From NCBI GenBank assembly GCA_038046385.1, contig JBBSWH010000001.1:32001-96000 (forward strand): a DNA stretch of 64,000 bases, read 5' to 3'. Positions 5,063 to 54,319 of the stretch are shown one piece after another. How positions within the stretch are numbered: position 1 is the stretch's first letter; the number at the start of each line of letters is the position of its first letter. The notes under the pieces are model-generated. The model saw only the letters and a program-made list of their open reading frames with translations. It did no database searches and was not told where the DNA came from. Source of the stretch: Nanobdellota archaeon. GTDB lineage: Archaea > Nanobdellota > Nanobdellia > Woesearchaeales > GW2011-AR4. A program made the translations under genes and the position numbers.

Positions 5063-5971
5063 TTATTGGTTTTTATTTGTTTCGGCATATTTTTTGAAAT
5101 TGTTTAGAATAGCCTGCCATCCGCTTCTTTGCATTTCAAGCGAATTTTCGTTTTCAGCTTCAAAAGTTTCAACAATCTTGGTTTCTTTTCCAAAGCTTGT
5201 GAACTCTATTTTTACTTTTCTCCCACCTTCTATCATGTAAGTTATTAATCTGTGTTTTACAACTTTATCATAAACCCCGTTAAAATCAAATCCTGTGCTT
5301 TTGTCTTTTGCTTCCATTCTAAAAAGAAATTTTCCTCCTACTTTTAAATCATTCTTTGCAAATGGTGTGTGCCAGTCTTCTGAAGCGTTGTTCCATTTGG
5401 TTATATGTTTTGGCAACGTCCACAATTCCCAAACTTTTTCTACTGGAACATTGACTGTGGATTCAACAGTTATTTTTGTTTTTGTATTTTCCATTTTTAT
5501 CCTTTCATAATCAACAAAAGAGAATTTGTATTTGTCATTTTTTAATTCTTCCTTTTTTATTTCCTTCCATTCTTTTTTGCTGAATTCAGGAAAATGAGCG
5601 TCGCCTTCAAAATCATTGTCTATGATTGTCAGATATATCCTGTCTGCAACCGGAAGAAACTCTTTGTAAATCTGTGCGCCGCCGATGACCATTATTTCAT
5701 CTGCGCCTTTTGCAGCTTCCAATGATTCTTTTACAGAATGAACAACAATGCATCCTTCTTTTTTGTAATTTTTATCGTGCGTGATTATTATGTTTGTTCT
5801 TTGCGGAAGAGGCTTTCCGATGGATTCAAAGGTTTTCCTGCCCATGATAACTGGCTTGTTTTTTGTAAGCTCGCGGAAATGCTTCATGTCTTCCGGAACA
5901 TTCCATATCAGCCTGTTGTTATTTCCGATTACCCTGTTGCGCCCCATTGCAGCGATTAGTGATACTGTCAT
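5063..5971 (-). CDS. folA: dihydrofolate reductase fused to an SRPBCC/AHSA1 domain
   Basis: IMGRKTFESIGKPLPQR and IGGAQIY; C-terminal WHTP...GGKF...GWQAILNNFKKYAE. Confidence 0.88.
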   Translation of the reverse strand: MTVSLIAAMGRNRVIGNNNRLIWNVPEDMKHFRELTKNKPVIMGRKTFESIGKPLPQRTNIIITHDKNYKKEGCIVVHSVKESLEAAKGADEIMVIGGAQIYKEFLPVADRIYLTIIDNDFEGDAHFPEFSKKEWKEIKKEELKNDKYKFSFVDYERIKMENTKTKITVESTVNVPVEKVWELWTLPKHITKWNNASEDWHTPFAKNDLKVGGKFLFRMEAKDKSTGFDFNGVYDKVVKHRLITYMIEGGRKVKIEFTSFGKETKIVETFEAENENSLEMQRSGWQAILNNFKKYAETNKNQ

Positions 5972-6863: not shown

Positions 6864-8348
6864 TTATTTTACCAAATAAACTTCAGAACTCTCTGCAACT
6901 TCCCTTGCGAACTTCAATCTTTGTTCGCTTTCAGCATATATTGTGAACAATTTGTCGTTTTTCCCAACTTTGTCGTTTACATGCTTGTAAATGTAAACAC
7001 CGGCACCCTTGTTTTGAGGTGCGCCTGCGATTCTTGCAATTCTTGTGATGTAAGAATTGCTTATCTCCTTTACAGTTCCGTTCTTGCTTGCAACAATATC
7101 ATAAGTATACTTGCCAACTGCTATTTTTTCAGGGTTAAGCTCTTTTCCTCCCTGGGCTTTTATTATCTCTTCCATTTTTTTGTAAGCCTTGCCCGAATCA
7201 AGCATTTCAACTGCTTTTTTTGCGCCGTCTTTAATTCCCATCATCTTGAAGATATTTGCGCACATTGCAACGCACTTTTTTTCCAGATCAAGCGGCCTTC
7301 TTGCGTCTCTTTTCAAAAGCCATACTACATCCTTGGCTTCAAGCGCCGGCCCTACCCCGTTGCCGATAGGCTGGCTTCCATCTGTTACCATCACTTCAAT
7401 ATGCTTCCCTAGTTTTTTGCCTATGACTTCAAACTGTTTTTTTAAGTGGAGTGCTTCTTTTTTTGTTTTTACTTTTGCGCCTTTTCCTGTTGGAATGTCA
7501 ATCAAAATATGCGTGCTTGAGACAGAATGCTTCTTTGCCATTATTGACGCAAGCAATTGACTCTCTGCATCAATTTCCAATGGCTTTTCAACGGCTATTA
7601 TTTTGTCGTCAGCAGGCGCCAAGTTCAAAGAGCCGCCCCAGACAATGCAGCCCTTTACCTTCAGAACTATTTTTTTCATTTTTTCTATCGGGAAAGTTAC
7701 ATTTGCAAGAACTTCCATGGTGTCTGCTGTTCCTGCCGGGCTTGTTATTGAACGGGAGCTTGTTTTTGGTATATAGAAACCCGCCGCTGCAATTATCGGA
7801 ACAATAACCATTGTCGTTCTGTTGCCAGGAATTCCGCCGATGCAGTGCTTGTCAACTACAGGGTATTTTCCTATTTTCAAAACCTCTCCGTGCTCCACCA
7901 TGGATTTTGTAAGAAGTATTGTCTCTTTTGGCGTCATGACATTTGTGTAGCACGCTGCGACAAAATATGTTAGTTCAATGGAGCTTAATTTGTTGTGCAC
8001 AATATCCCAAACAATCTGGTCTATTTCTTTTTTTGACAGAATTCCTCCGTCTAACTTTTTTCTTATGAACTCTATTGAAAGCGGCTTTTTTGCTATCTTG
8101 ATTTCAACATGGTCGTTGTTTTTTATCTTTAACGACTTCATAACTTCGTCAAAAAGGCCTACGCAGCCCTGTTTTATCACCTTGCTGTTTTGCGCTATGT
8201 CAACAACAACAGTTTCTATTTTATTGCCTTTGATTATTTTTACCCTGTCCATCAAATGCAAATCGAGAAGTTCAGCATCGTGCTTATTGAAGACTGCAAC
8301 AAGCGTCACTCCGCTTGAAATGTCCATATCTTTTACTTTTAGCTTCAT
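6864..8348 (-). CDS. AMP phosphorylase (thymidine phosphorylase family)
   Basis: DKHCIGGIPGNR and KTSSRSITSPAGTAD motifs; N-terminal double-psi extension. Confidence 0.92.
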   Translation of the reverse strand: MKLKVKDMDISSGVTLVAVFNKHDAELLDLHLMDRVKIIKGNKIETVVVDIAQNSKVIKQGCVGLFDEVMKSLKIKNNDHVEIKIAKKPLSIEFIRKKLDGGILSKKEIDQIVWDIVHNKLSSIELTYFVAACYTNVMTPKETILLTKSMVEHGEVLKIGKYPVVDKHCIGGIPGNRTTMVIVPIIAAAGFYIPKTSSRSITSPAGTADTMEVLANVTFPIEKMKKIVLKVKGCIVWGGSLNLAPADDKIIAVEKPLEIDAESQLLASIMAKKHSVSSTHILIDIPTGKGAKVKTKKEALHLKKQFEVIGKKLGKHIEVMVTDGSQPIGNGVGPALEAKDVVWLLKRDARRPLDLEKKCVAMCANIFKMMGIKDGAKKAVEMLDSGKAYKKMEEIIKAQGGKELNPEKIAVGKYTYDIVASKNGTVKEISNSYITRIARIAGAPQNKGAGVYIYKHVNDKVGKNDKLFTIYAESEQRLKFAREVAESSEVYLVK

Positions 8349-8388: not shown

Positions 8389-9471
8389 TTAGAAATATTC
8401 CTTCAATTCTGTTTTTTCATCTTCGTATATCTCGACAAAGGTCATGAGCAGCGAGAGAATCACAGGACCCAACAAAAGACCGAGGATGCCAAAAAGGTTT
8501 AACCCACCAAGCACGCCGATAAGCACGAGGATAGGGTGGACATCTGCTTTTGTGCCTATAATCTTTGGCTTTATTATGTTGTCAATGCTGCTTATGATTA
8601 TAATTCCATAAACTAGCAGGAGAACTCCTTTTATTATCGGCGTGTTGTCGTTTTGCAAATATCCAGTAAATATAAGGTTAAGTGCGGCAGGAAGCCATAT
8701 AATTGCAGTTCCGAAATAAGGAATCAAGGCAAAGATAATCATGACAAATCCCCACAAGATGGGGGAGTGAACCCCTAGCAAAAAGAAACCTATTCCGCCA
8801 AGAATGCCCTGTATGACTGCAACAAAGATGTTGACGTAAAACACAGCATAGGTTATATTATGAAATCTTTCAAAAACATTCTGCTTGTGATGGCCTTTTA
8901 ACGGGAGTATACTCTTTATCCTTTTTGATATTGCTTCCCCGTCCTTGAGAAGATAATAAACAACAAACATCATGACAAAAATATTGAGCATTATTGCCGG
9001 TATAGACGATATGAACTGCGAGAAGCTGTCAAGTATGAAAACCGTTATTTTTCTTATTGAAGACTGCACGTAATAATCAAGGTCATTCTGCGGAAGAAAA
9101 CCTACAACTGTTTTTATGTTTTGGCATGACCATGAATCCTGATCGCTGCACACCACATTGATGAAGTTTGTCCCAAGCTTTTGCTGGTTTAATGTTTTGT
9201 ATGTTGCGTAAGCTTCTTTGGATACTAGGCCAAAAACAACTATGAACGGGACGGTAATCAAAAGGACTAACAGGAATGCAATAAGACCTGCCGTAATCAC
9301 TTTATTTTTTATCTGGACCAACATTTTTTGGTATACTGGGTAGGCAAGGTATGCAAGCATTGCCCCGGATGCAAAAGTTGCAAGGAACGGCTTTGTTATG
9401 AAGAATGCAAGCGCAATTATTGCGAGGAATAAAAGCGAGAAAAATATTTTAGGATACAGATTAGACTTGAT
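8389..9471 (-). CDS. AI-2E family transporter (start likely a non-canonical ATC at 9471)
   Basis: DNIIKPK...HPILVLIGVLGG...GPVI motif; frame open 37 codons upstream of the ATG, with a GGTGA RBS. Confidence 0.85.
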   Translation of the reverse strand: MKSNLYPKIFFSLLFLAIIALAFFITKPFLATFASGAMLAYLAYPVYQKMLVQIKNKVITAGLIAFLLVLLITVPFIVVFGLVSKEAYATYKTLNQQKLGTNFINVVCSDQDSWSCQNIKTVVGFLPQNDLDYYVQSSIRKITVFILDSFSQFISSIPAIMLNIFVMMFVVYYLLKDGEAISKRIKSILPLKGHHKQNVFERFHNITYAVFYVNIFVAVIQGILGGIGFFLLGVHSPILWGFVMIIFALIPYFGTAIIWLPAALNLIFTGYLQNDNTPIIKGVLLLVYGIIIISSIDNIIKPKIIGTKADVHPILVLIGVLGGLNLFGILGLLLGPVILSLLMTFVEIYEDEKTELKEYF

Positions 9472-9520
9472 TGTTTCACCCTTTTTATTGCTTTAATGGA
9501 TACAAATTAAGTTTTTAATT

Positions 9521-9598
9521 CTGTTCGCTTCGCTCACAATAGTTAGTGCTCGGGTTTCGCTCGATGCCAGTCGCTCAACCCTCGCTTATTTATTATAA
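9521..9598. repeat. GCTTCGC mini-hairpin intergenic repeat (family D)
   Basis: similar to 25538-25594 and 27844-27922. Confidence 0.6.
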
Positions 9599-9619
9599 TG
9601 CTCAATTAACAAATGATTA

Positions 9620-9742
9620 ATGATAATGAATGGGCCTGACAGATGTGAACCAACCCTTTTGTGAGTTGACGACAAATATCATGTGCCATTTTTAATGGCA
9701 CGACCCGAATATGATAATGAATGGGCCTGACCAGATTTGAAC
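9620..9742. mobile_element. family A mini-element with duplication of the tRNA-Val 3' end
   Basis: ATGATAATGAATGGGCCTGAC at 9620 and 9711, flanking a 60-bp CAAC..GTTGAC..GTGC-hairpin insert. Confidence 0.8.
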
Positions 9743-9835
9743 TGGTGGCCTTCACCGTGTCGAGGTGACGTCATTTGCCGCCCGCAAACTCAGCAAATGC
9801 TTAATTTGCGCGGTACCGGACTAGACCACAGGCCC
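9722..9835 (-). tRNA. tRNA-Val(GAC) with 40-nt D-loop intron (9775-9814)
   Basis: 74-nt cloverleaf after splicing; relaxed BHB. Confidence 0.9.
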
Positions 9836-9972
9836 TTAATGAATGAGACCAATGCGGTGTTTTTATACCTTTCTAAGCCCAGATGAACATTTTTGGGAAT
9901 ATCTGTATAAATAGGTTTCTACATGGAAAGGCTTTTATATTTTGAAATGATTTACTGCAATGGGTGGTTTAA

Positions 9973-10635
9973 ATGAAAACAAAATTAATTTTTGTTATGA
10001 TTTTTGTATTAATATTGGCTTCTGCATGCGCAACCCAAGTTCAGGTTACGCAGCCTGCAGAAAAAACTGTTGTAAAGGATCCTGTTAAGCCTGATGTTTC
10101 AGTCCAGCCGGTGTTTCCTGTCCCGAAAAATATACCTTCTGAGATAAGGGAATTGTTTGTCAAGGCTGAGACAAGGGCAGAAAGCGCCTCTTATCTGTAT
10201 CAGGGGCCGGAAACAGGAAATGACATTTCCCAGTTTTATGTAAAGGGGGACAAAATAAGGCATATTCCTTCAAGAAATTTAAAATCGCTGGACAAGCCGG
10301 AATCTTTTGACTCAATCTTCATAGACAAGGCTGCAAAAACAGCTAAGTCTTATTGTGTTGATCCTACTTGCAAATACAAGGGGCTGAAAGCAGAGCTGGA
10401 TTATGAAGCGTACTATGTTCCAACAATATTTGACTGGGCTGATTTTAATTCTGCAGAGAAGATAACGGAAGAGCAGATTGAAAGGCGTGCAACGTGGGTT
10501 GTAAAGACCGACAAGGGAACTTTGTGGATTGACACTTATTACGGAGTTCCGCTTAAAGTTGACGCTGATGGAGCTATTTACAAGTACCAGCAGGTTAATT
10601 TCAATGCAGTTAAGGATTCTGACGTGAATCCTTGA
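9973..10635 (+). CDS. lipoprotein of unknown function
   Basis: signal peptide with ASAC lipobox. Confidence 0.7.
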   Translation: MKTKLIFVMIFVLILASACATQVQVTQPAEKTVVKDPVKPDVSVQPVFPVPKNIPSEIRELFVKAETRAESASYLYQGPETGNDISQFYVKGDKIRHIPSRNLKSLDKPESFDSIFIDKAAKTAKSYCVDPTCKYKGLKAELDYEAYYVPTIFDWADFNSAEKITEEQIERRATWVVKTDKGTLWIDTYYGVPLKVDADGAIYKYQQVNFNAVKDSDVNP

Positions 10636-12285: not shown

Positions 12286-12404
12286 AGCCTCTGATGGGAA
12301 TTGCACCCACGACCTTTGCCTTTTAGGCTAGCATATGGTACCAAGGCTTCGCGGATTAAAAGAATACTTCCAATCTAACGCAATGGCTACTATGCTACAG
12401 AGGC
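12286..12404 (-). tRNA. tRNA-Thr(GGT) with two introns (12348-12376 at 28/29; 12322-12338 at 37/38)
   Basis: 73-nt cloverleaf after removing two BHB-like introns. Confidence 0.85.
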
Positions 12405-14673: not shown

Positions 14674-14794
14674 AATATAAATGCGGGGAACTGATGCGCC
14701 CCAACCTTTTCTTATATAAGAAAAGCTTGACCAAAAGAAGTATGCTACGCAGTTGTGAGGTAAACCTCACTAAAGAAAATATAATGCGGGGGAA
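14674..14794. mobile_element. family A mini-element at the displaced tRNA-Leu(TAA) 3' end
   Basis: AATATAA(A)TGCGGGG(G)AA duplicated; insert highly similar to the reverse complement of 47510-47595. Confidence 0.75.
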
Positions 14795-14874
14795 GCACAT
14801 TCCGCCCCTATTAGAATGCGTATCTTAAATTCCCTTTCTTATTTATATATCTTTTCATGTTACGTAGGGTGCTT

Positions 14875-16457: not shown

Positions 16458-16530
16458 AGGGTATTTCGGTATACGAAATATCCAATTCAGTCTAAGTGGT
16501 GCGGTTTACGTAATCACTTAGACTTTTTTT
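16458..16530 (+). ncRNA. candidate DUF3800-associated two-hairpin small RNA
   Basis: BRE/TATA (TTTAAATA, 16428-16435); hairpins 16459-16483 and 16489-16524 with CG-GTWTA-CG loops; T7 run. Confidence 0.55.
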
Positions 16531-17326
16531 AAAATCTGGGTTCTGGGAAAACTTTTACTTTAACTGATCCATCTATTACTACGCTTCCTATTTCTAAAGT
16601 GCATATTGGCTTTAATATTTTTAAGTACCCTTCATTATAGCACTGTTTTTTTAAATTTGAACATAGGAAGCAGTAATAGGATCTTTGAAAAGCATAGCAA
16701 ATTAAATCAGCAATTTCATAAAATGATGACTTGGACATCGGTTCAATATTTAAATCTGCTAATATATTTGAAAAATCTTTTACATATGTGGTTCCATTCT
16801 TCATTACATCTCGATGCACCCTTTTAATATTAGACGCTAATTTAGTTGAGCTATCACATAAATTTACAATCCCTAAAGAGTTTTTATTATCTCCTCTTCC
16901 CTTAATTATTTTTTGAAATTTCTCTAATACGAACTCGTAAGCTAAAAGATAAGGGTTTGCAGGATGTTTGTATTTTTTCCTTAGGTTATGATTATCAATA
17001 ACTATAATTATTGGTTCAATAGGCATCTTTGCAATGAACTCATACAGTTTCAACATTATTTCTTTGCCTTGTTGATCGGTTAGATACCCCTTATACCTAT
17101 TTCTGTTGTTCCTGGAGATATGATTTAACTCTACAGCATGGGCTGGAGTAGTTTTAAGCTCTTTAGGGAATAGTGACTCTTTAAATTCTTTGAAAATCCT
17201 ACTTTGATTAAAATAATCTTCTTCTTTTATAATTAAACCACCTAAAACAAAGAAATCAGATTGCTCTCTTATGTTAGGGTTATCAATACGTGAACTTCCC
17301 GATTCATCTAAGTATAAGAGATACAT
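16529..17326 (-). CDS. DUF3800 domain protein (RNase H-like fold)
   Basis: MYLLYLDESG...FFVLGG...HAVEL...EIADLICYA motifs. Confidence 0.85.
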   Translation of the reverse strand: MYLLYLDESGSSRIDNPNIREQSDFFVLGGLIIKEEDYFNQSRIFKEFKESLFPKELKTTPAHAVELNHISRNNRNRYKGYLTDQQGKEIMLKLYEFIAKMPIEPIIIVIDNHNLRKKYKHPANPYLLAYEFVLEKFQKIIKGRGDNKNSLGIVNLCDSSTKLASNIKRVHRDVMKNGTTYVKDFSNILADLNIEPMSKSSFYEIADLICYAFQRSYYCFLCSNLKKQCYNEGYLKILKPICTLEIGSVVIDGSVKVKVFPEPRF

Positions 17327-19262: not shown

Positions 19263-19937
19263 CTACGTTGACCTTAAGTTAATATTAAATATATCGTTAA
19301 TCTCACTATTGGAAGCAACAACTATTTTCAAGTCTTCAAGGTTTTCTGGAATATCAAACAAAACAAAACCTCTTTTTTTAATGCCTGGGTTTATAGCATC
19401 ACCAAACCCTGAAAATAAGGTAAAACTCTCTCCATTGTAAGTTCCAGTAGCATCATTATCACTAAGAAACTCCCTTCCTTGAATATCCTCTAATTTCATT
19501 AAAGTATTATCAAACTTAGCTGCCTTTTTAGCTAAATTTTCAACTTCTACTTCTATAATTAAATAAGTGCCGTCGGCTACTTGCATGCCACTAAACATTC
19601 CACCAGAAAAAGATTTTAGTTCTTTATTGCTTAAAAATGTCCACTTAAAATCTCCGGCCACTATTTCATCTTTAAAATTGTACGTTACATTTCCAAAGAA
19701 TTTTTTCTTACAATCTATAATATTGCTTACAATAGTAGATTCATCAGGGCAGACATATTGTATTTTTTCCACAATCTCAGTTTTAATTTCAACCTTTGGT
19801 GGACAAGAATTACAATCAAGCTCTTGGCACTTTGTAGAAGGACAGGCAGTTTCTTTGCATTCTGGACACTGAGGAACTGCTTGAGTACAAGCAGTAATAA
19901 ACAACAATCCTATCAACAATAAAGCATAAACTTTCAA
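19263..19937 (-). CDS. DUF4352-like lipoprotein with Cys-rich N-terminus
   Basis: ITAC lipobox; YLIIEVEVEN...INPGIKKRGFVLFDIP. Confidence 0.7.
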   Translation of the reverse strand: MKVYALLLIGLLFITACTQAVPQCPECKETACPSTKCQELDCNSCPPKVEIKTEIVEKIQYVCPDESTIVSNIIDCKKKFFGNVTYNFKDEIVAGDFKWTFLSNKELKSFSGGMFSGMQVADGTYLIIEVEVENLAKKAAKFDNTLMKLEDIQGREFLSDNDATGTYNGESFTLFSGFGDAINPGIKKRGFVLFDIPENLEDLKIVVASNSEINDIFNINLRST

Positions 19938-20052: not shown

Positions 20053-20307
20053 ATGGATGACGAGTTAAAAATATTCTTAGCAAGAAGCAAGCTTAGAAGT
20101 AAGATTTTACAAGAGTTAGAAGAAAAGCCTCAAATAGCTTCTTTTTTGGCAAAAAAGATTAAAAAGCATAGAGAAGTTATAAGCAGGGTATTTTTGGATT
20201 TACAGAGAAAAAAGTTAGCTGTATGCACAAATTCAAAAGATTCAAGCTTTAGGTATTACAAAATAACAGAGCAAGGCAAAAAGGCACTTAAAGAGTTAAG
20301 AGTTTGA
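20053..20307 (+). CDS. winged-helix transcriptional regulator
   Basis: SKLRSKIL..L...ISR...L...YYKITEQGK pattern. Confidence 0.75.
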   Translation: MDDELKIFLARSKLRSKILQELEEKPQIASFLAKKIKKHREVISRVFLDLQRKKLAVCTNSKDSSFRYYKITEQGKKALKELRV

Positions 20308-21438: not shown

Positions 21439-21843
21439 TTATTGTTCATGTAGTTTTGGTTTAACTTTATTCAATAAATATTCAAATTCTTCATCTGAAA
21501 GGTCTTTTCCAAAGTTTTCGTAAAACCCTTGTTTTTGACCTTCAAAGAATTTTCTGTCTCTCTCAATAGCCTGTAGAGCGTTCTTCAAATATGGAATCCA
21601 ATTTGAGTTAAGTTCTACTTTGATTTCTTCTATGCGACTTCTGCCTTTTAGTTTCTCTAATTCTTCACTCTCTTCTCTCAGTTCTTGCTGTCTTTTTTCT
21701 ATTTCCTTATCAGTAAACAAATTGCTATCAATCAGTTTTCTGATATATTGAGATCTGTCCTTGCCAAGAATATTCATTCTGGCTATCTGCTCTGGTGTTA
21801 GCGTTATGCTGACATTAACAAATCTTGAGTGGTATTGTTTCAT
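21439..21843 (-). CDS. ribbon-helix-helix/coiled-coil protein
   Basis: VSITLTPEQ...DRSQYIRKLID motif. Confidence 0.6.
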   Translation of the reverse strand: MKQYHSRFVNVSITLTPEQIARMNILGKDRSQYIRKLIDSNLFTDKEIEKRQQELREESEELEKLKGRSRIEEIKVELNSNWIPYLKNALQAIERDRKFFEGQKQGFYENFGKDLSDEEFEYLLNKVKPKLHEQ

Positions 21844-22036
21844 TTTTCTCCAGTTTTTTACGAATAAGTGAGCTTAAGTCTATGCCGAGTTGTAAAGCCT
21901 CATGTTTTAATTGCAGTAACCTATCGGCTTCTAAACGAAAAGCTAAAAATTCTGTCTTCTTTTGGATATGATTGGATTTTTTCTCAAAGCCAGGGTGATA
22001 GTATTGTTTTTGCATAGTTATCACTACGTTATACAT
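21815..22036 (-). CDS. ribbon-helix-helix (CopG-like) protein
   Basis: LAFRLE...LKHEA...LSSLIRKKL motif. Confidence 0.55.
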   Translation of the reverse strand: MYNVVITMQKQYYHPGFEKKSNHIQKKTEFLAFRLEADRLLQLKHEALQLGIDLSSLIRKKLEKNETIPLKIC

Positions 22037-22161: not shown

Positions 22162-22302
22162 TTAGGATTTTTCATTTTCTTTTACTGCCATTTGAATTAG
22201 TTGAAAAACAAGGTTGCTAACTGACCTACCATCTTTTTTTGCTTTATTTTTTATCTTTTCAGCAAGTTCATCTGAAATAATAGTTTGGAGTTTTTTACTC
22301 AT
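22162..22302 (-). CDS. Arc/CopG-like RHH protein (not in ORF track)
   Basis: MSKKLQTIISDELAEKIKNKAKKDGRSVSNLVFQLI. Confidence 0.7.
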   Translation of the reverse strand: MSKKLQTIISDELAEKIKNKAKKDGRSVSNLVFQLIQMAVKENEKS

Positions 22303-22390
22303 GCTAATCGAAATGAGTATAGTGGATTAATATATAAAGAGTGATTCAATGGCAAGTTATTTGTAACACTTCGCACAAGTGCTATATTTT

Positions 22391-22790
22391 TCTAACCGGT
22401 TAGAAACCGGTTTCCACTTTTTGAAAAGTATGGGAAAGATGGAACGCGAAATCGATTTCGCAAATTGAAGCAATATGGCAAAAACTCAAATGCCAACCGG
22501 TTGGCGAACCTAAAACAATATGGTAGGGTGGGACCTGAGCATTTGACAAACCGGTTTGTCAAATTGCAACCGGTTGCAAAATTTGAAGAAATATGGGGAT
22601 GGGACTGAAAATCGATTTTCAAGATTGAAACAATACGGAATTAGGTTGCTTATAATATCTCTTTTGGTGCCGATTTTCTGGAAATCGATTTCCACTTCCA
22701 AAAATTGTTTTCGCTTTTGTCGAATCGATTCGACAAAACCAAGTAAAAATGTCAAACCGGTTTGCCATTTTGTCAAATCGATTTTACATT
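22391..22790. repeat. array of 11 palindromes (core AAYCGRTT) with co-varying arms, partly at 45-bp period
   Basis: centres near 22397, 22408, 22453, 22498, 22552, 22571, 22613, 22686, 22726, 22758 and 22779. Confidence 0.9.
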
Positions 22791-24141: not shown

Positions 24142-24259
24142 TGCGGGGGAAGGGATTCGAACCCCCGAATCCACTAAGGAACAGGATAGCTTATCTCGCT
24201 TACAGCGCGAGTGTTCCATCTTAAGTCCTGCGCGTTTGGCCAGGCTTCGCTACCCCCGC
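24142..24259 (-). tRNA. tRNA-Leu(TAA) with 32-nt canonical intron (24188-24219)
   Basis: cloverleaf with variable arm; BHB helix CTTA/TAAG. Confidence 0.92.
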
Positions 24260-24411: not shown

Positions 24412-24933
24412 TTACCCGTACTTAAACTTCTGCAGCTTGAAGAATGACTGTATCCTCTTGAACAGCTCGCGCCCCTGCATGTTAACTACGCCGTCGTACC
24501 TGTCAGACCAATAACTGTAGATGAACCTGTCAATCAGCGTCCTAAAGAACCTGAGAACCGGCCTCGATTGCCAGTATGTTCCGTGCAGATGCGCTGATAT
24601 GAAGCATTCAACAAGAATGTGAACATCTCCATTATTGATTTTGTACTTTTTTCCGTCTTTTTTGATAATAATCTCTTTAACATTGTCCATCTGCGCCCTT
24701 AAAACAACGTCTCCGTGATGATAATCATCAAGATGCGAATGGATTTCTGTAAGCCATTCAATTTTTTTGCCGTCTTTTGTGACGTGCTCCATCTTTCTCT
24801 TATGCTCTTTCTCAAATCCGTTTTCCTTTGCCCAGTCATCAACTTCCTTGTAGAAATCCTCGGCCGAAAAAGGGCCGTTGTACGCCATCCTTAAGTCATA
24901 AAGCACTTGTTTTTTTTCTGAGATTAAAATCAC
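24412..24933 (-). CDS. hypothetical protein, paralog family member 1
   Basis: Y.G.F...DFY..V..W...GF pattern shared with the next two genes. Confidence 0.75.
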   Translation of the reverse strand: MILISEKKQVLYDLRMAYNGPFSAEDFYKEVDDWAKENGFEKEHKRKMEHVTKDGKKIEWLTEIHSHLDDYHHGDVVLRAQMDNVKEIIIKKDGKKYKINNGDVHILVECFISAHLHGTYWQSRPVLRFFRTLIDRFIYSYWSDRYDGVVNMQGRELFKRIQSFFKLQKFKYG

Positions 24934-25457
24934 CCTGATGGTTTCGATATTACAGAATAATGCCTGTACATGTTAAGGAATTTTTCTATGCTGTCATGAA
25001 GATGGTTTATATCGTGCGTCAGTCTCTGCTCAAACCTTTCTGTGTAAGTCTTGAAGAAAACATAGTCAAAAAGTGTCCTTATGAAGTGCAAAAACGGTTT
25101 TTCATCCCAATAGCTTTCATAGTCAAACTCCATGAAGCCGTCTATCACTATTACTAATCTCCCGTTGTCAACCTTTTTTTTCTTTCCATTAACCATAGCA
25201 TCGCTTCTTACAAAATCATATCCAATAACGCGTATCTTGACAATATACCTTATGTAATCTGTTATTTTTTTCCAGGGGGAAATCTGCCATTCTATGAACT
25301 TGCCGTTTGCAGTGTTCTGCTCAAAATCCTTATCCTGCTTTTTGTCAAACCCACGCTCCCAGAGGAAATGGTCTATTACGCTGAAGAAATCATTCAGGTC
25401 AACTGGCCCGCTGTAATCCAGCTTCTGGTGGTCGACTACTAGCTTTAAGTGTCCCAT
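24930..25457 (-). CDS. hypothetical protein, paralog family member 2
   Basis: YSGPVDLNDFF...W...GKKKKVDNG pattern. Confidence 0.75.
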   Translation of the reverse strand: MGHLKLVVDHQKLDYSGPVDLNDFFSVIDHFLWERGFDKKQDKDFEQNTANGKFIEWQISPWKKITDYIRYIVKIRVIGYDFVRSDAMVNGKKKKVDNGRLVIVIDGFMEFDYESYWDEKPFLHFIRTLFDYVFFKTYTERFEQRLTHDINHLHDSIEKFLNMYRHYSVISKPSG

Positions 25458-25600
25458 TTTTAGTAATTATTTTTTTAAATTATCTTTGCTGTTTATTATT
25501 ATTCAGTGTTTTTTCATTGTTGTTATTTTGATATTTTTCCGTTGCTTCGCAACAAACTCTTGGCTCGCCGCATTGCTCGCCTATTTATTATAATTTTTTC

Positions 25601-26164
25601 CTAATGCGTTCTTGAAAAGTTTCTGTGCTGGTTGCCTTCTGAAGTCATCTTCAGCCTTTCTTTTATCAAAGCATGCAATTTTAACACAATGTTATAGTAA
25701 AGTTCATCCCACCAGACGCCTTCAAGTTTTTTTCTGATAACATACTTGTTGTAGAAGCTTTTCAGATGGGCAACGAAAGCGCTTCTTTCCCATACTTTTT
25801 CATGATCAGTTGTTATTTTTCCGTGCAGCTGAATCCAAACTCTTCCTTTTGTCATTTTTTTCTTTTTTCCGTTTTTTGTTACAATCTCTACATCATGCAT
25901 ATCGAAAGTCTCTATTGTGATATTAACAGACCATTCATAATAATCTTCAACAGCTCTTGTTGCTTCAAACATGTACAAAATTTCTGATCCAAAAGGGCCG
26001 GGCCTCCTTAATCTTTGCTGCGTCTCGCGAAGCTTGAACTTCTTTTCCCTGAAAAAGTTTGCAATAGACTCATACAGATCCTGCATATCAAGAATTCCTT
26101 TGTATTGGACATAAACAGTAGGCGTTCCGGCTTCTGCATTGTGCACAAAATCCTCTGGCTTCAT
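25601..26164 (-). CDS. hypothetical protein, paralog family member 3
   Basis: YKGILDMQDLY...GKKKKMTKG pattern. Confidence 0.75.
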   Translation of the reverse strand: MKPEDFVHNAEAGTPTVYVQYKGILDMQDLYESIANFFREKKFKLRETQQRLRRPGPFGSEILYMFEATRAVEDYYEWSVNITIETFDMHDVEIVTKNGKKKKMTKGRVWIQLHGKITTDHEKVWERSAFVAHLKSFYNKYVIRKKLEGVWWDELYYNIVLKLHALIKERLKMTSEGNQHRNFSRTH

Positions 26165-28068: not shown

Positions 28069-28216
28069 CCCCGCGTAGCTTAACGGCGGAGCGCTCGGCT
28101 GTGAGACTTTAAAGTCTGGCTAGAGATGCGCTCTAAGACCTTACGCTATTCTAGCGAGGAATGATAGAGAGCCAGTCGTGCCCGGGAGGTTGCTGGTTCA
28201 ACTCCGGCCGCGGGGA
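28069..28216 (+). tRNA. tRNA-His(GTG) with ~76-nt anticodon-loop intron (~28105-28180)
   Basis: acceptor, D and T arms intact; exact splice junction ambiguous. Confidence 0.8.
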
Positions 28217-54231: not shown

Positions 54232-54319
54232 GGGCCCATAGCTCAGCCTGCTTAGAGCACAAGACTCTTAAGAATTTGGAGTTATCTTGGGGTCAGGGGT
54301 TGAAATCCCCTTGGGCCCA
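54232..54319 (+). tRNA. tRNA-Lys(CTT) with 13-nt canonical intron (54271-54283)
   Basis: cloverleaf; BHB helix CTCT/GGAG. Confidence 0.9.

Follow-up and report, generated by a model that had tools for sequence, protein, structure and literature searches.

Dimers of ribbon-helix-helix (RHH) proteins commonly recognize short palindromic sites and, where these form rows, bind along them cooperatively. Among the RHH proteins, the archaeal SegB and the bacterial ParG, omega and ParR occupy palindromic or repeated DNA as rows of dimers (PMC8682754). Very little work has been done on the mobile elements of DPANN archaea, and how they control copy number, immunity or maintenance is not known. Here, we describe a 400-bp array of palindromes in such an element, found in a 64,000-nucleotide stretch (the window; all positions below refer to it) of contig JBBSWH010000001.1 from the Nanobdellota archaeon assembly GCA_038046385.1, a tiny archaeon from groundwater that belongs to the order Woesearchaeales. 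Eleven palindromes built on a shared AAYCGRTT core lie between the gene for a tyrosine-type integrase and the gene for a 46-amino acid (aa) RHH protein, RHH46. We tentatively interpret the array as non-coding and as a row of 11 dyads to which a dimeric protein of the element, most probably RHH46, would bind, an interpretation to which we attach somewhat less than even confidence.

Palindromes with one core and unit-specific arms

The window contains 15 matches to AAYCGRTT, of which 11 fall within positions 22394-22783. Shuffled versions of the window hold a mean of 4.7 and at most 11 matches, and none of 100 shuffles reaches 15. Across the whole genome (1.28 Mb in 19 contigs, 85% complete), the core is matched 70 times and the array is the only true cluster; a group of three sites on contig C2 lies in what appears by eye to be coding sequence. 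The array occupies a 507-bp gap between the RHH46 gene and the stop codon of the integrase gene, both of which are on the - strand (Table 1).

Every core in the array is self-complementary (six AACCGGTT, five AATCGATT and no mixed forms); outside the array, 35 of 59 cores are self-complementary and 24 are mixed. With 35/59 taken as the chance rate, eleven self-complementary cores in a row have a probability of ~0.003 by our own arithmetic. The symmetry extends past the core, such that the perfect palindromes measure, in array order, 18, 12, 16, 14, 24, 16, 16, 16, 24, 12, and 10 bp, corresponding to symmetric arms of 5, 2, 4, 3, 8, 4, 4, 4, 8, 2, and 1 bp per side with a mean of 4.09. The 35 palindromic cores elsewhere in the genome have arms with a mean of 0.46 and a maximum of 3 bp. 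The arm sequences differ from unit to unit yet keep their symmetry. Perfect palindromes of at least 12 bp number 469 in the genome, 10 of them within the 400 bp of the array, and the next densest spots are simple AT repeats. Core-to-core distances range from 11 to 73 bp and run 45, 45, 54, 19, and 42 bp in the left part. A sequence-only reading of this stretch had reported 11 palindromes of 10-24 bp with this core, at initial spacings of 45, 45, 54, and 42 bp with one extra palindrome at 19 bp, and both descriptions are borne out by the coordinates; all checked details of that observation are accurate.

Contigs from three other studies carry the array without a single difference, letter for letter; the sequence is therefore real and stable, although this identity is silent on the gain or loss of units. 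With up to two mismatches allowed, none of the 11 palindromes recurs elsewhere in the genome, and none is found in 38 loci of related elements (209 kb in all). There is thus no sign of donor, target or 'remembered' sites. The best Rfam match to the array scores 20.1 bits against a cut-off of 45, and no known RNA family was recognized. None of the sequencing runs listed as containing this stretch is recorded as RNA. As single-stranded DNA, the array strand folds with -66.3 kcal/mol (z -4.67), and none of 100 shuffles folds as well. The GC content of the array is 0.33, as in the rest of the element. Avoidance of restriction sites was considered and set aside, because CCGG and TCGA occur at an unremarkable 1.18 and 0.90 times expectation.

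The units also have a direction. In the five left-hand units with cores at 22405, 22450, 22495, 22568, and 22610, a one-directional tail (TTGAARCAATAYGG / YTDRAARMARTAYGG) starts exactly 7 nt past the core, and three of these five are preceded by a G-rich box (GATGGRAC or GGTGGGAC). The tail motif occurs three times in the genome, each time within the array. The four right-hand palindromes (22679-22788) have no clear tail; three of them have TTTTGTCRAAYCGRTT in common, and their orientation cannot be fixed because the sites are palindromic. Positions 22600-22621 pair with 22679-22700 at 82% complementarity. Palindromes 7 and 8 are exactly one symmetric pair apart, while unit A and palindrome 8 share the flank TTTCCACTT with different core types, which indicates that core type switches by paired changes. 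No intermediate between the two core types is present among the 11 sites.

The central bases of a palindrome cannot pair in a hairpin, yet they are symmetric here, which points to double-stranded DNA or a copying mechanism and not to an RNA stem. Moreover, the mismatches in the two imperfect palindromes are T/C and C/T, which are not of the G-U wobble type. Taken as features of the sequence, the centre-inclusive symmetry and the non-wobble mismatches argue for double-stranded DNA or a copying mechanism over selected RNA stems.

Coding content, related elements and the host element

Translated on the + strand, the units read NRFPLFEKYG, NRFRKLKQYG, NRLANLKQYG, NRLQNLKKYG, and NRFSRLKQYG. The five peptides stand as the sequence-only reading gave them, as do its observations that the frame opens directly after a stop codon (TAA), contains no ATG and shifts near 22567; the units switch frame between 22549 and 22568. 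The NRF triplets lie in three different frames on either strand. Open frames across the array span 70 and 83 codons on the + strand and 49, 88, and 76 codons on the - strand, and the only ATG-started open reading frame (ORF) over the array is that of 49 aa on the - strand. Five of the ten core spacings (45, 45, 54, 42, and 21 bp) are multiples of 3. Over 30 nt of the five tail-bearing units, pairwise differences number 25, 14, and 63 at the first, second and third codon positions, with 14, 0, and 30 in the tail columns alone. Synonymous variation between units, as previously proposed, is thus real but weak: permutation of columns 13-30 gives P = 0.011 for the five units and 0.035 without the most divergent one, and few independent changes underlie these values. 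Outside the arms, units B and F differ by GGA/GGG, AAG/AAA, TAT/TAC, and AAA/AGA, three of the four changes being at third positions.

The 'Arg' codons of the units are CGG or CGA in 11 of 11 cases. By way of comparison, CGA and CGG together account for 4.1% of Arg codons across 634 long ORFs of the genome (n = 10,048) and for 13 of 104 (12.5%) in the element's own genes. The rarity of these codons in the host indicates that the core is imposed at the level of DNA and not by codon choice. A six-frame search of the genome for the array motif returned only the array itself apart from two loose chance hits. In a phmmer search of the + frame against 1.84 billion protein representatives, the one match was a spurious one to an FGDF-repeat protein (E 3.4e-4), and the - frame ORF has no homologue among proteins of near or greater length in a word-indexed set of 5.8 billion clusters. 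Neither of the two + strand translations matches a Pfam family at E <= 1, so that the likeness to DUF3102-type proteins proposed earlier did not hold. We conclude from these sequence features that the array is not a gene now; a coding past is possible. Of the earlier interpretation, the absence of an intact gene is supported, and a cis-acting DNA role such as an operator bank or an origin is still the most fitting class of explanation.

Homologues of the integrase were located at 10 loci in species-representative genomes (46-71% identity) and at 26 more loci within the order (26-58% identity), where 23 of 401 genomes matched, including that of the window. None of these 36 loci contains a cluster of AAYCGRTT or of palindromes. 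The closest relatives, loci L009 and L010, share with the window the integrase (76% nucleotide identity) and the region of a 73-aa RHH protein encoded in the RHH46 operon, and nothing in between. In L010, the slot between integrase and RHH genes holds a 244-aa ORF on the opposite strand (5190-5924, -), and in a further relative, L011, a 298-aa ORF (7346-8242, -). Neither ORF belongs to a Pfam or PHROG family, and the two share no relationship with one another or with either array translation, suggesting that the slot carries variable cargo. With a different orphan ORF in each relative, the slot beside the RHH operon resembles a cargo hot spot. RHH46 is only 26-28% identical to its positional counterparts among the RHH proteins of L010 and L011, whereas identities of the 73-aa protein to its own counterparts there are 65% and 55%. 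At the RHH promoter, L010 and L011 have one dyad apiece, of different sequence. An alignment-based search with the 73-aa RHH protein gave the same three loci and no others among genome contigs and none among viral contigs, and RHH46 gave four weak matches (E ~1e-3 to 7e-3) in the 400 other genomes of the order, with no AAYCGRTT at any of the four loci.

The comparison of the array between related elements, which had been suggested in the sequence-only reading, thus yielded no array at the 36 integrase loci, together with the identical copies from three other studies. Both outcomes that this reading had named as telling against it were found in part: the relatives have ORFs in the slot, but these bear no relation to the array, and the motif was found in no gene while the array is invariant between samples.

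Two further observations concern the relatives. L011 continues after its two RHH genes with a 585-aa protein (8772-10529, +) that has a Walker-A-like GKS motif and no Pfam match; it is P-loop-like by eye and may represent a replication protein, so far undescribed, of integrative plasmids in DPANN archaea. The element in the window has no counterpart of it. Contigs L009, L010, and L013 are labeled 'uncultured Methanosarcinales archaeon', and the other contigs with close integrases are labeled Woesearchaeota or 'archaeon'. Either the labels are unreliable or the element family crosses lineages.

Searches for other arrays in large collections were made as exact-pattern scans. A triple-core pattern, scanned in three collections, matched at least 120 stretches of genome contigs and 95 viral stretches, mostly coding repeats with spacings that are multiples of 3; no array-like locus is among these listed matches, and the pattern is absent from all 400 other genomes of the order. 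The unit pattern (core, 7 nt and tail) matched 62 metagenome, 47 genome and no viral stretches, all as single matches and in about the number expected by chance; within 600 bp, the largest number of cores at these 109 loci was three (2 loci), two (19 loci) or one (88 loci). A blastn comparison of the 507-bp gap with 60 relatives gave chance-level matches only (best E 0.006). No array-like repeats were found upstream of the host orc1/cdc6 gene, and mimicry of a host origin was not seen there. Literature searches on AACCGGTT in archaea, on DPANN integrated elements (titles and abstracts only) and on perfect palindromes, iterons and archaeal plasmids returned nothing comparable. Viral contig L172 (~890-1420) has irregular AACCGGTT sites in repeated, iteron-like CCCTACATAG-AACCGGTT-nTAAACCGG units that are unrelated in sequence to those of the window.

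The genomic context suggests that the array sits in an integrated plasmid-like element of ~9.4 kb. The integrase gene adjoins an intron-containing tRNA gene, the likely integration target, whose 3' end includes the 11-bp sequence TGCGGGGGAAG (24142-24152); this recurs at 14785-14795 as a candidate attachment (att) repeat, although the match is weak (E 0.42). GC content is ~0.29-0.33 across 15-23 kb and ~0.37-0.43 in the flanks. A search for an empty integration site gave none, as the orthologues of the left-flank transporter in four genus relatives have no adjoining tRNA gene, and the borders of the element therefore rest on the 11-bp repeat and the drop in GC. RHH46 gives weak matches to Arc, Mnt, and AvtR in the PDB. 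The array starts ~50 bp further upstream of the putative TATA box of its gene, and the 11 palindromes span 50-450 bp upstream. Other recognizable genes of the element encode a winged helix-turn-helix protein (20053-20307), a DUF4352 protein, a DUF3800 protein and a zinc-ribbon protein, and a 65-aa AbrB-like protein is encoded as well. No replication or partition family, HUH Rep or transposase, and no ParA- or ParM-type NTPase, was identified in the element by comparison of 14 of its ORFs with Pfam and of eight ORFs of the window with PHROGs.

Table 1. Positions in the window of the array units and of the genes and signals that surround them.
Feature	Position	Strand	Remarks
Palindrome 1, TTTCTAACCGGTTAGAAA	22389-22406		18 bp; CCGG centre; 4-bp overlap with palindrome 2
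Palindrome 2, GAAACCGGTTTC	22403-22414		12 bp; unit A, the first with a tail
Palindrome 3, GCGAAATCGATTTCGC	22446-22461		16 bp; unit B
Palindrome 4, GCCAACCGGTTGGC	22492-22505		14 bp; unit C
Palindrome 5, ATTTGACAAACCGGTTTGTCAAAT	22541-22564		24 bp; without tail; 19 bp ahead of next core; reading-frame shift here
Palindrome 6, TTGCAACCGGTTGCAA	22564-22579		16 bp; unit E
Palindrome 7, TGAAAATCGATTTTCA	22606-22621		16 bp; unit F
Palindrome 8, TGGAAATCGATTTCCA	22679-22694		16 bp
Palindrome 9, TTTTGTCGAATCGATTCGACAAAA	22715-22738		24 bp
Palindrome 10	22746-22771		26 bp with one mismatched pair; perfect part 22753-22764, CAAACCGGTTTG
Palindrome 11, imperfect, TGTCAAATCGATTTTACA	22771-22788		perfect part 22775-22784
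Five one-directional tails, YTDRAARMARTAYGG	22420-22434, 22465-22479, 22510-22524, 22583-22597, 22625-22639	+	
G-rich boxes, GATGGRAC or GGTGGGAC	22438-22445, 22527-22534, 22598-22605	+	
RHH46 gene, 46-aa RHH protein	22162-22302	-	candidate binder of the array; Pfam RHH_5 2.3e-8; PHROG Arc-like repressor 2.8e-5
Likely TATA box of RHH46 gene, TTTATATA	22331-22338	-	~30 nt upstream of start codon, as read from the sequence
73-aa RHH-like gene	21815-22036	-	RHH46 operon; CopG_antitoxin 1e-3
134-aa RHH-like gene	21439-21843	-	RHH46 operon; RHH by eye only, no Pfam family
Integrase gene, tyrosine type, 424 aa	22810-24084	-	PF00589 4.2e-7
Intron-containing tRNA gene	24142-24259	-	likely integration target; Rfam tRNA 43 bits

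The DUF3800 and DUF4352 proteins are encoded at 16529-17326 (-) and 19263-19937 (-), and the N-terminus of the latter is lipoprotein-like by eye. Just outside the element, three tandem ORFs of 173, 175, and 187 aa without a Pfam family occupy 24412-26164 (-); the first two are paralogues (27% identity, E 2e-20), and the third is similar by eye only. Rfam identifies four tRNA genes in the window, at 12286-12404 (-), 24142-24259 (-), 28069-28216 (+), and 54232-54319 (+), and ARAGORN identifies none. At 88-148 nt, all four are probably intron-containing, and tRNA counts for this genome based on ARAGORN only would be too low.

Candidate explanations for the array

In the interpretation that we tentatively favor, a homodimeric protein of the element, with RHH46 as the first candidate given that its promoter is ~50 bp away, would occupy the dyads on double-stranded DNA, and the eleven sites would assemble a high-avidity nucleoprotein complex. 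Such a complex would regulate the RHH operon, act in maintenance or incompatibility of the element, or combine the two roles. We infer the binding, the identity of the binder and the role of the complex from the double-stranded-DNA type of symmetry, the adjoining RHH gene, which has diverged along with the sequence upstream of it, and the known behavior of RHH proteins. The adjoining gene encodes an RHH DNA-binding protein and several dyads lie near its promoter, as in RHH operators and centromeres, and the single, different dyads at the RHH promoters of L010 and L011 lend further support. The divergence of RHH46 (26-28% identity) relative to that of the next gene (55-65%), with the array situated upstream, fits a specificity module composed of a repressor and its sites. 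Symmetry of the arms would be maintained most simply by template switching during replication, in which one arm is copied onto the other in a single event; this quasi-palindrome correction is reportedly the subject of Ripley's model. Template switching can create perfect stems or inverted copies without a spacer and compensatory double changes in one event (PMC8794818). Alternatively, selection for symmetric contacts could be the source of the arm symmetry.

Several observations weigh against a binding-site row. A dimer that reads the core alone leaves the symmetry of the variable arms unexplained. Archaeal repressors usually act over the TATA box, and the array is positioned upstream of it. 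The core with extended arms is found at no other promoter of the element and nowhere else in the genome, hence there is no regulon. A centromere or a Rep-dependent origin would be without its usual partner, as the element has neither ParA/ParM nor Rep, and RHH46, as read from its alignment, does not have the N-terminal tail used by centromere-binding RHH proteins. The lack of a comparable array at the 36 integrase loci and in the 400 other genomes means that conservation offers no support. Lastly, the 3-periodic variation of the tails (P 0.011/0.035) is not predicted by a purely non-coding history.

That same periodicity (25/14/63), the third-position location of three of the four non-arm changes between units B and F, and the five spacings divisible by 3 would be expected of a relic, or a dual-coded remnant, of an orphan gene for a tandem-repeat protein with ~15-aa repeats, reading x-N-R-F/L-x-x-L-K-Q-Y-G on the + strand or P-Y-C-F-N-L-x-N-R-F-x-V-P-S on the - strand. 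Frameshifts, together with a lost start codon on the + strand, would have disrupted such a gene, and the palindromes would ride on its N-R-F codons, their symmetry having been produced or maintained at the DNA level. The open frames of 49-88 codons that cover the array on both strands, and the protein-coding ORFs in the same slot of L010 and L011, are compatible with this origin, which we regard as possible but doubtful. Coding alone does not yield the core, given CGG/CGA in 11 of 11 units, and half of the ten spacings are not multiples of 3. The + strand has no start codon, at least two frameshifts are needed on either strand, and homologues were found neither in Pfam nor among the 1.84 billion representatives, nor, for the - frame at near and greater lengths, in the 5.8 billion clusters. 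The ORFs in the slot of the relatives are unrelated to the array and to each other, and a decaying pseudogene should lose perfect palindromes, yet 9 of 11 are perfect. Symmetric arms of free sequence would also fit a structural constraint, that is, a hairpin or cruciform acting as a cis signal for replication (as a single-strand or helper-dependent origin), packaging or recombination of this element without a recognizable Rep, for which a helper element or the integrase might provide the function in trans. The strong single-stranded DNA fold (-66.3 kcal/mol, z -4.67, 0/100 shuffles), the adjoining tyrosine recombinase gene and the P-loop-like 585-aa protein of L011, identified as such by eye, are in keeping with such a signal. 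We nevertheless consider it unlikely, because a hairpin needs no symmetry at its two central pairs, stems of 3-10 bp with a loop allowed for are short for cruciform extrusion, and spacings of 11-73 bp leave no room for cassettes. In addition, neither an HUH Rep nor a transposase was found in the element with Pfam and PHROGs, the region upstream of the host orc1/cdc6 gene is without similar repeats, and a GC content equal to that of the rest of the element provides no AT-rich unwinding region.

An explanation without function, in which the array is a minisatellite of 42-54-bp units in a variable cargo slot and template switching at the self-complementary 8-mer makes and corrects the palindromes, is decidedly improbable in our view. 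It is in accord with the orphan status of the array (absent from 36 related-integrase loci and from 400 genomes of the order), with the variation of the slot between relatives and with the ability of template switching to produce, in a single step, inverted copies that are perfect and have no spacer as well as compensatory double changes (PMC8794818). However, the genome has no general excess of palindromes (469 of at least 12 bp, against ~435 by a rough composition estimate), the tail and its fixed 7-nt offset are conserved in five units, and retention of the core in 11 of 11 units, with arms of near-random similarity, indicates constraint on the core. The sequence-only reading had interpreted the array as a non-coding library whose fragments had been captured from a gene in its allelic versions; much like silent cassettes, these would provide a specificity memory or serve as donors in recombination. 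The mixture of conserved and variable blocks in units without a start codon would suit such a library, and donor genes could be the source of the third-position bias; we give it scarcely any credence, since no expression locus or donor gene was found in the 85%-complete genome or the protein collections, none of the 11 palindromes turns up in the 38 related loci (209 kb) or in the rest of the genome, samples do not vary, and the rare CGR codons speak against ordinary coding donors. A further possibility, quite unlikely as we see it, is a novel type of cis element, a bank of dyad sites, each with the one core and its own symmetric arms in a constant directional frame, whose symmetry would be actively maintained through selection or template switching and which would be read by different specificity variants of a small dimeric protein; alternatively, the whole array would be a sink or decoy that lets an element without Rep control or exploit related elements. 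In a dual-coded version of this bank, the sites may lie within translated repeats.

The pattern is real, striking and unexplained, and it is known from a single locus. Were the array a decayed orphan gene, the finding would be ordinary. As it stands, the locus is a compact and testable case, consisting of one 46-aa protein and one 400-bp DNA fragment. If RHH46 binds, the eleven natural site variants would be a ready specificity series for an archaeal RHH protein, and the strict arm symmetry amid free divergence is a natural case for examining selection versus template-switch mutation.

Comparison with described repeat arrays

The 8-bp self-complementary cores resemble the metbox of MetJ, which is an 8-bp palindrome. 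More broadly, the Arc, Mnt, and CopG operators, the MetJ metboxes, the omega heptads, the ParG and ParR centromeres and the SegB sites likewise place a small RHH gene beside a row of short dyads upstream of its own promoter. SegB binds palindromic sites as several dimers (PMC8682754). The array departs from these systems in that its 11 sites over 400 bp far exceed a repressor operator and in that its arms are unit-specific yet symmetric, which is not known from described arrays. Furthermore, a ParA/ParM partner is missing from the element and an N-terminal tail from RHH46, the sites are upstream of the TATA box and not over it, and the binder here is putative.

Plasmids of the pRN1 type, with an operon of a CopG-like repressor (orf56) and rep, share with the element a gene order that runs from the integrase through a small RHH repressor to additional small DNA-binding proteins, and the relative L011 goes on to its 585-aa protein, replication-like by eye and without a Pfam match. 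The minimal replicon of pRN1 is reported to consist of the orf56/orf904 operon with 64 bp upstream and 166 bp downstream (PMC4234260). Whereas pRN1 has one operator and a downstream stem-loop origin, the element in the window has no rep and has its palindromes upstream; the likeness noted here is one of gene order.

The attC sites of integrons combine imperfect sequence conservation with conserved symmetry, and they too form a symmetric row adjoining a tyrosine recombinase gene. In contrast to attC, the array conserves the palindrome centre and not the outer ends, and its integrase is probably of the ordinary tRNA-targeting type with homologues in integrated elements. Sites 11-73 bp apart leave no room for cassettes, and the locus is therefore not an integron. 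The directional units at 42-54 bp, each a dyad with an asymmetric tail and a G-rich box, recall iteron origins and archaeal origin recognition boxes, but the element has no Rep and no AT-rich unwinding element, its dyads vary, and no similar repeat accompanies the host orc1 gene. Clusters of short palindromes in intergenic gaps are also typical of repetitive extragenic palindromic (REP) sequences and bacterial interspersed mosaic elements; REP sequences are dispersed in many copies, while the core with its arms and the tail of the array are unique in the genome. Protein-binding repeat arrays beside small repressor genes are known. What is unusual in this DPANN mobile element is that the units of an orphan array have one core in common while their arms, though strictly symmetric, are particular to each unit, all within a directional frame that stays constant.

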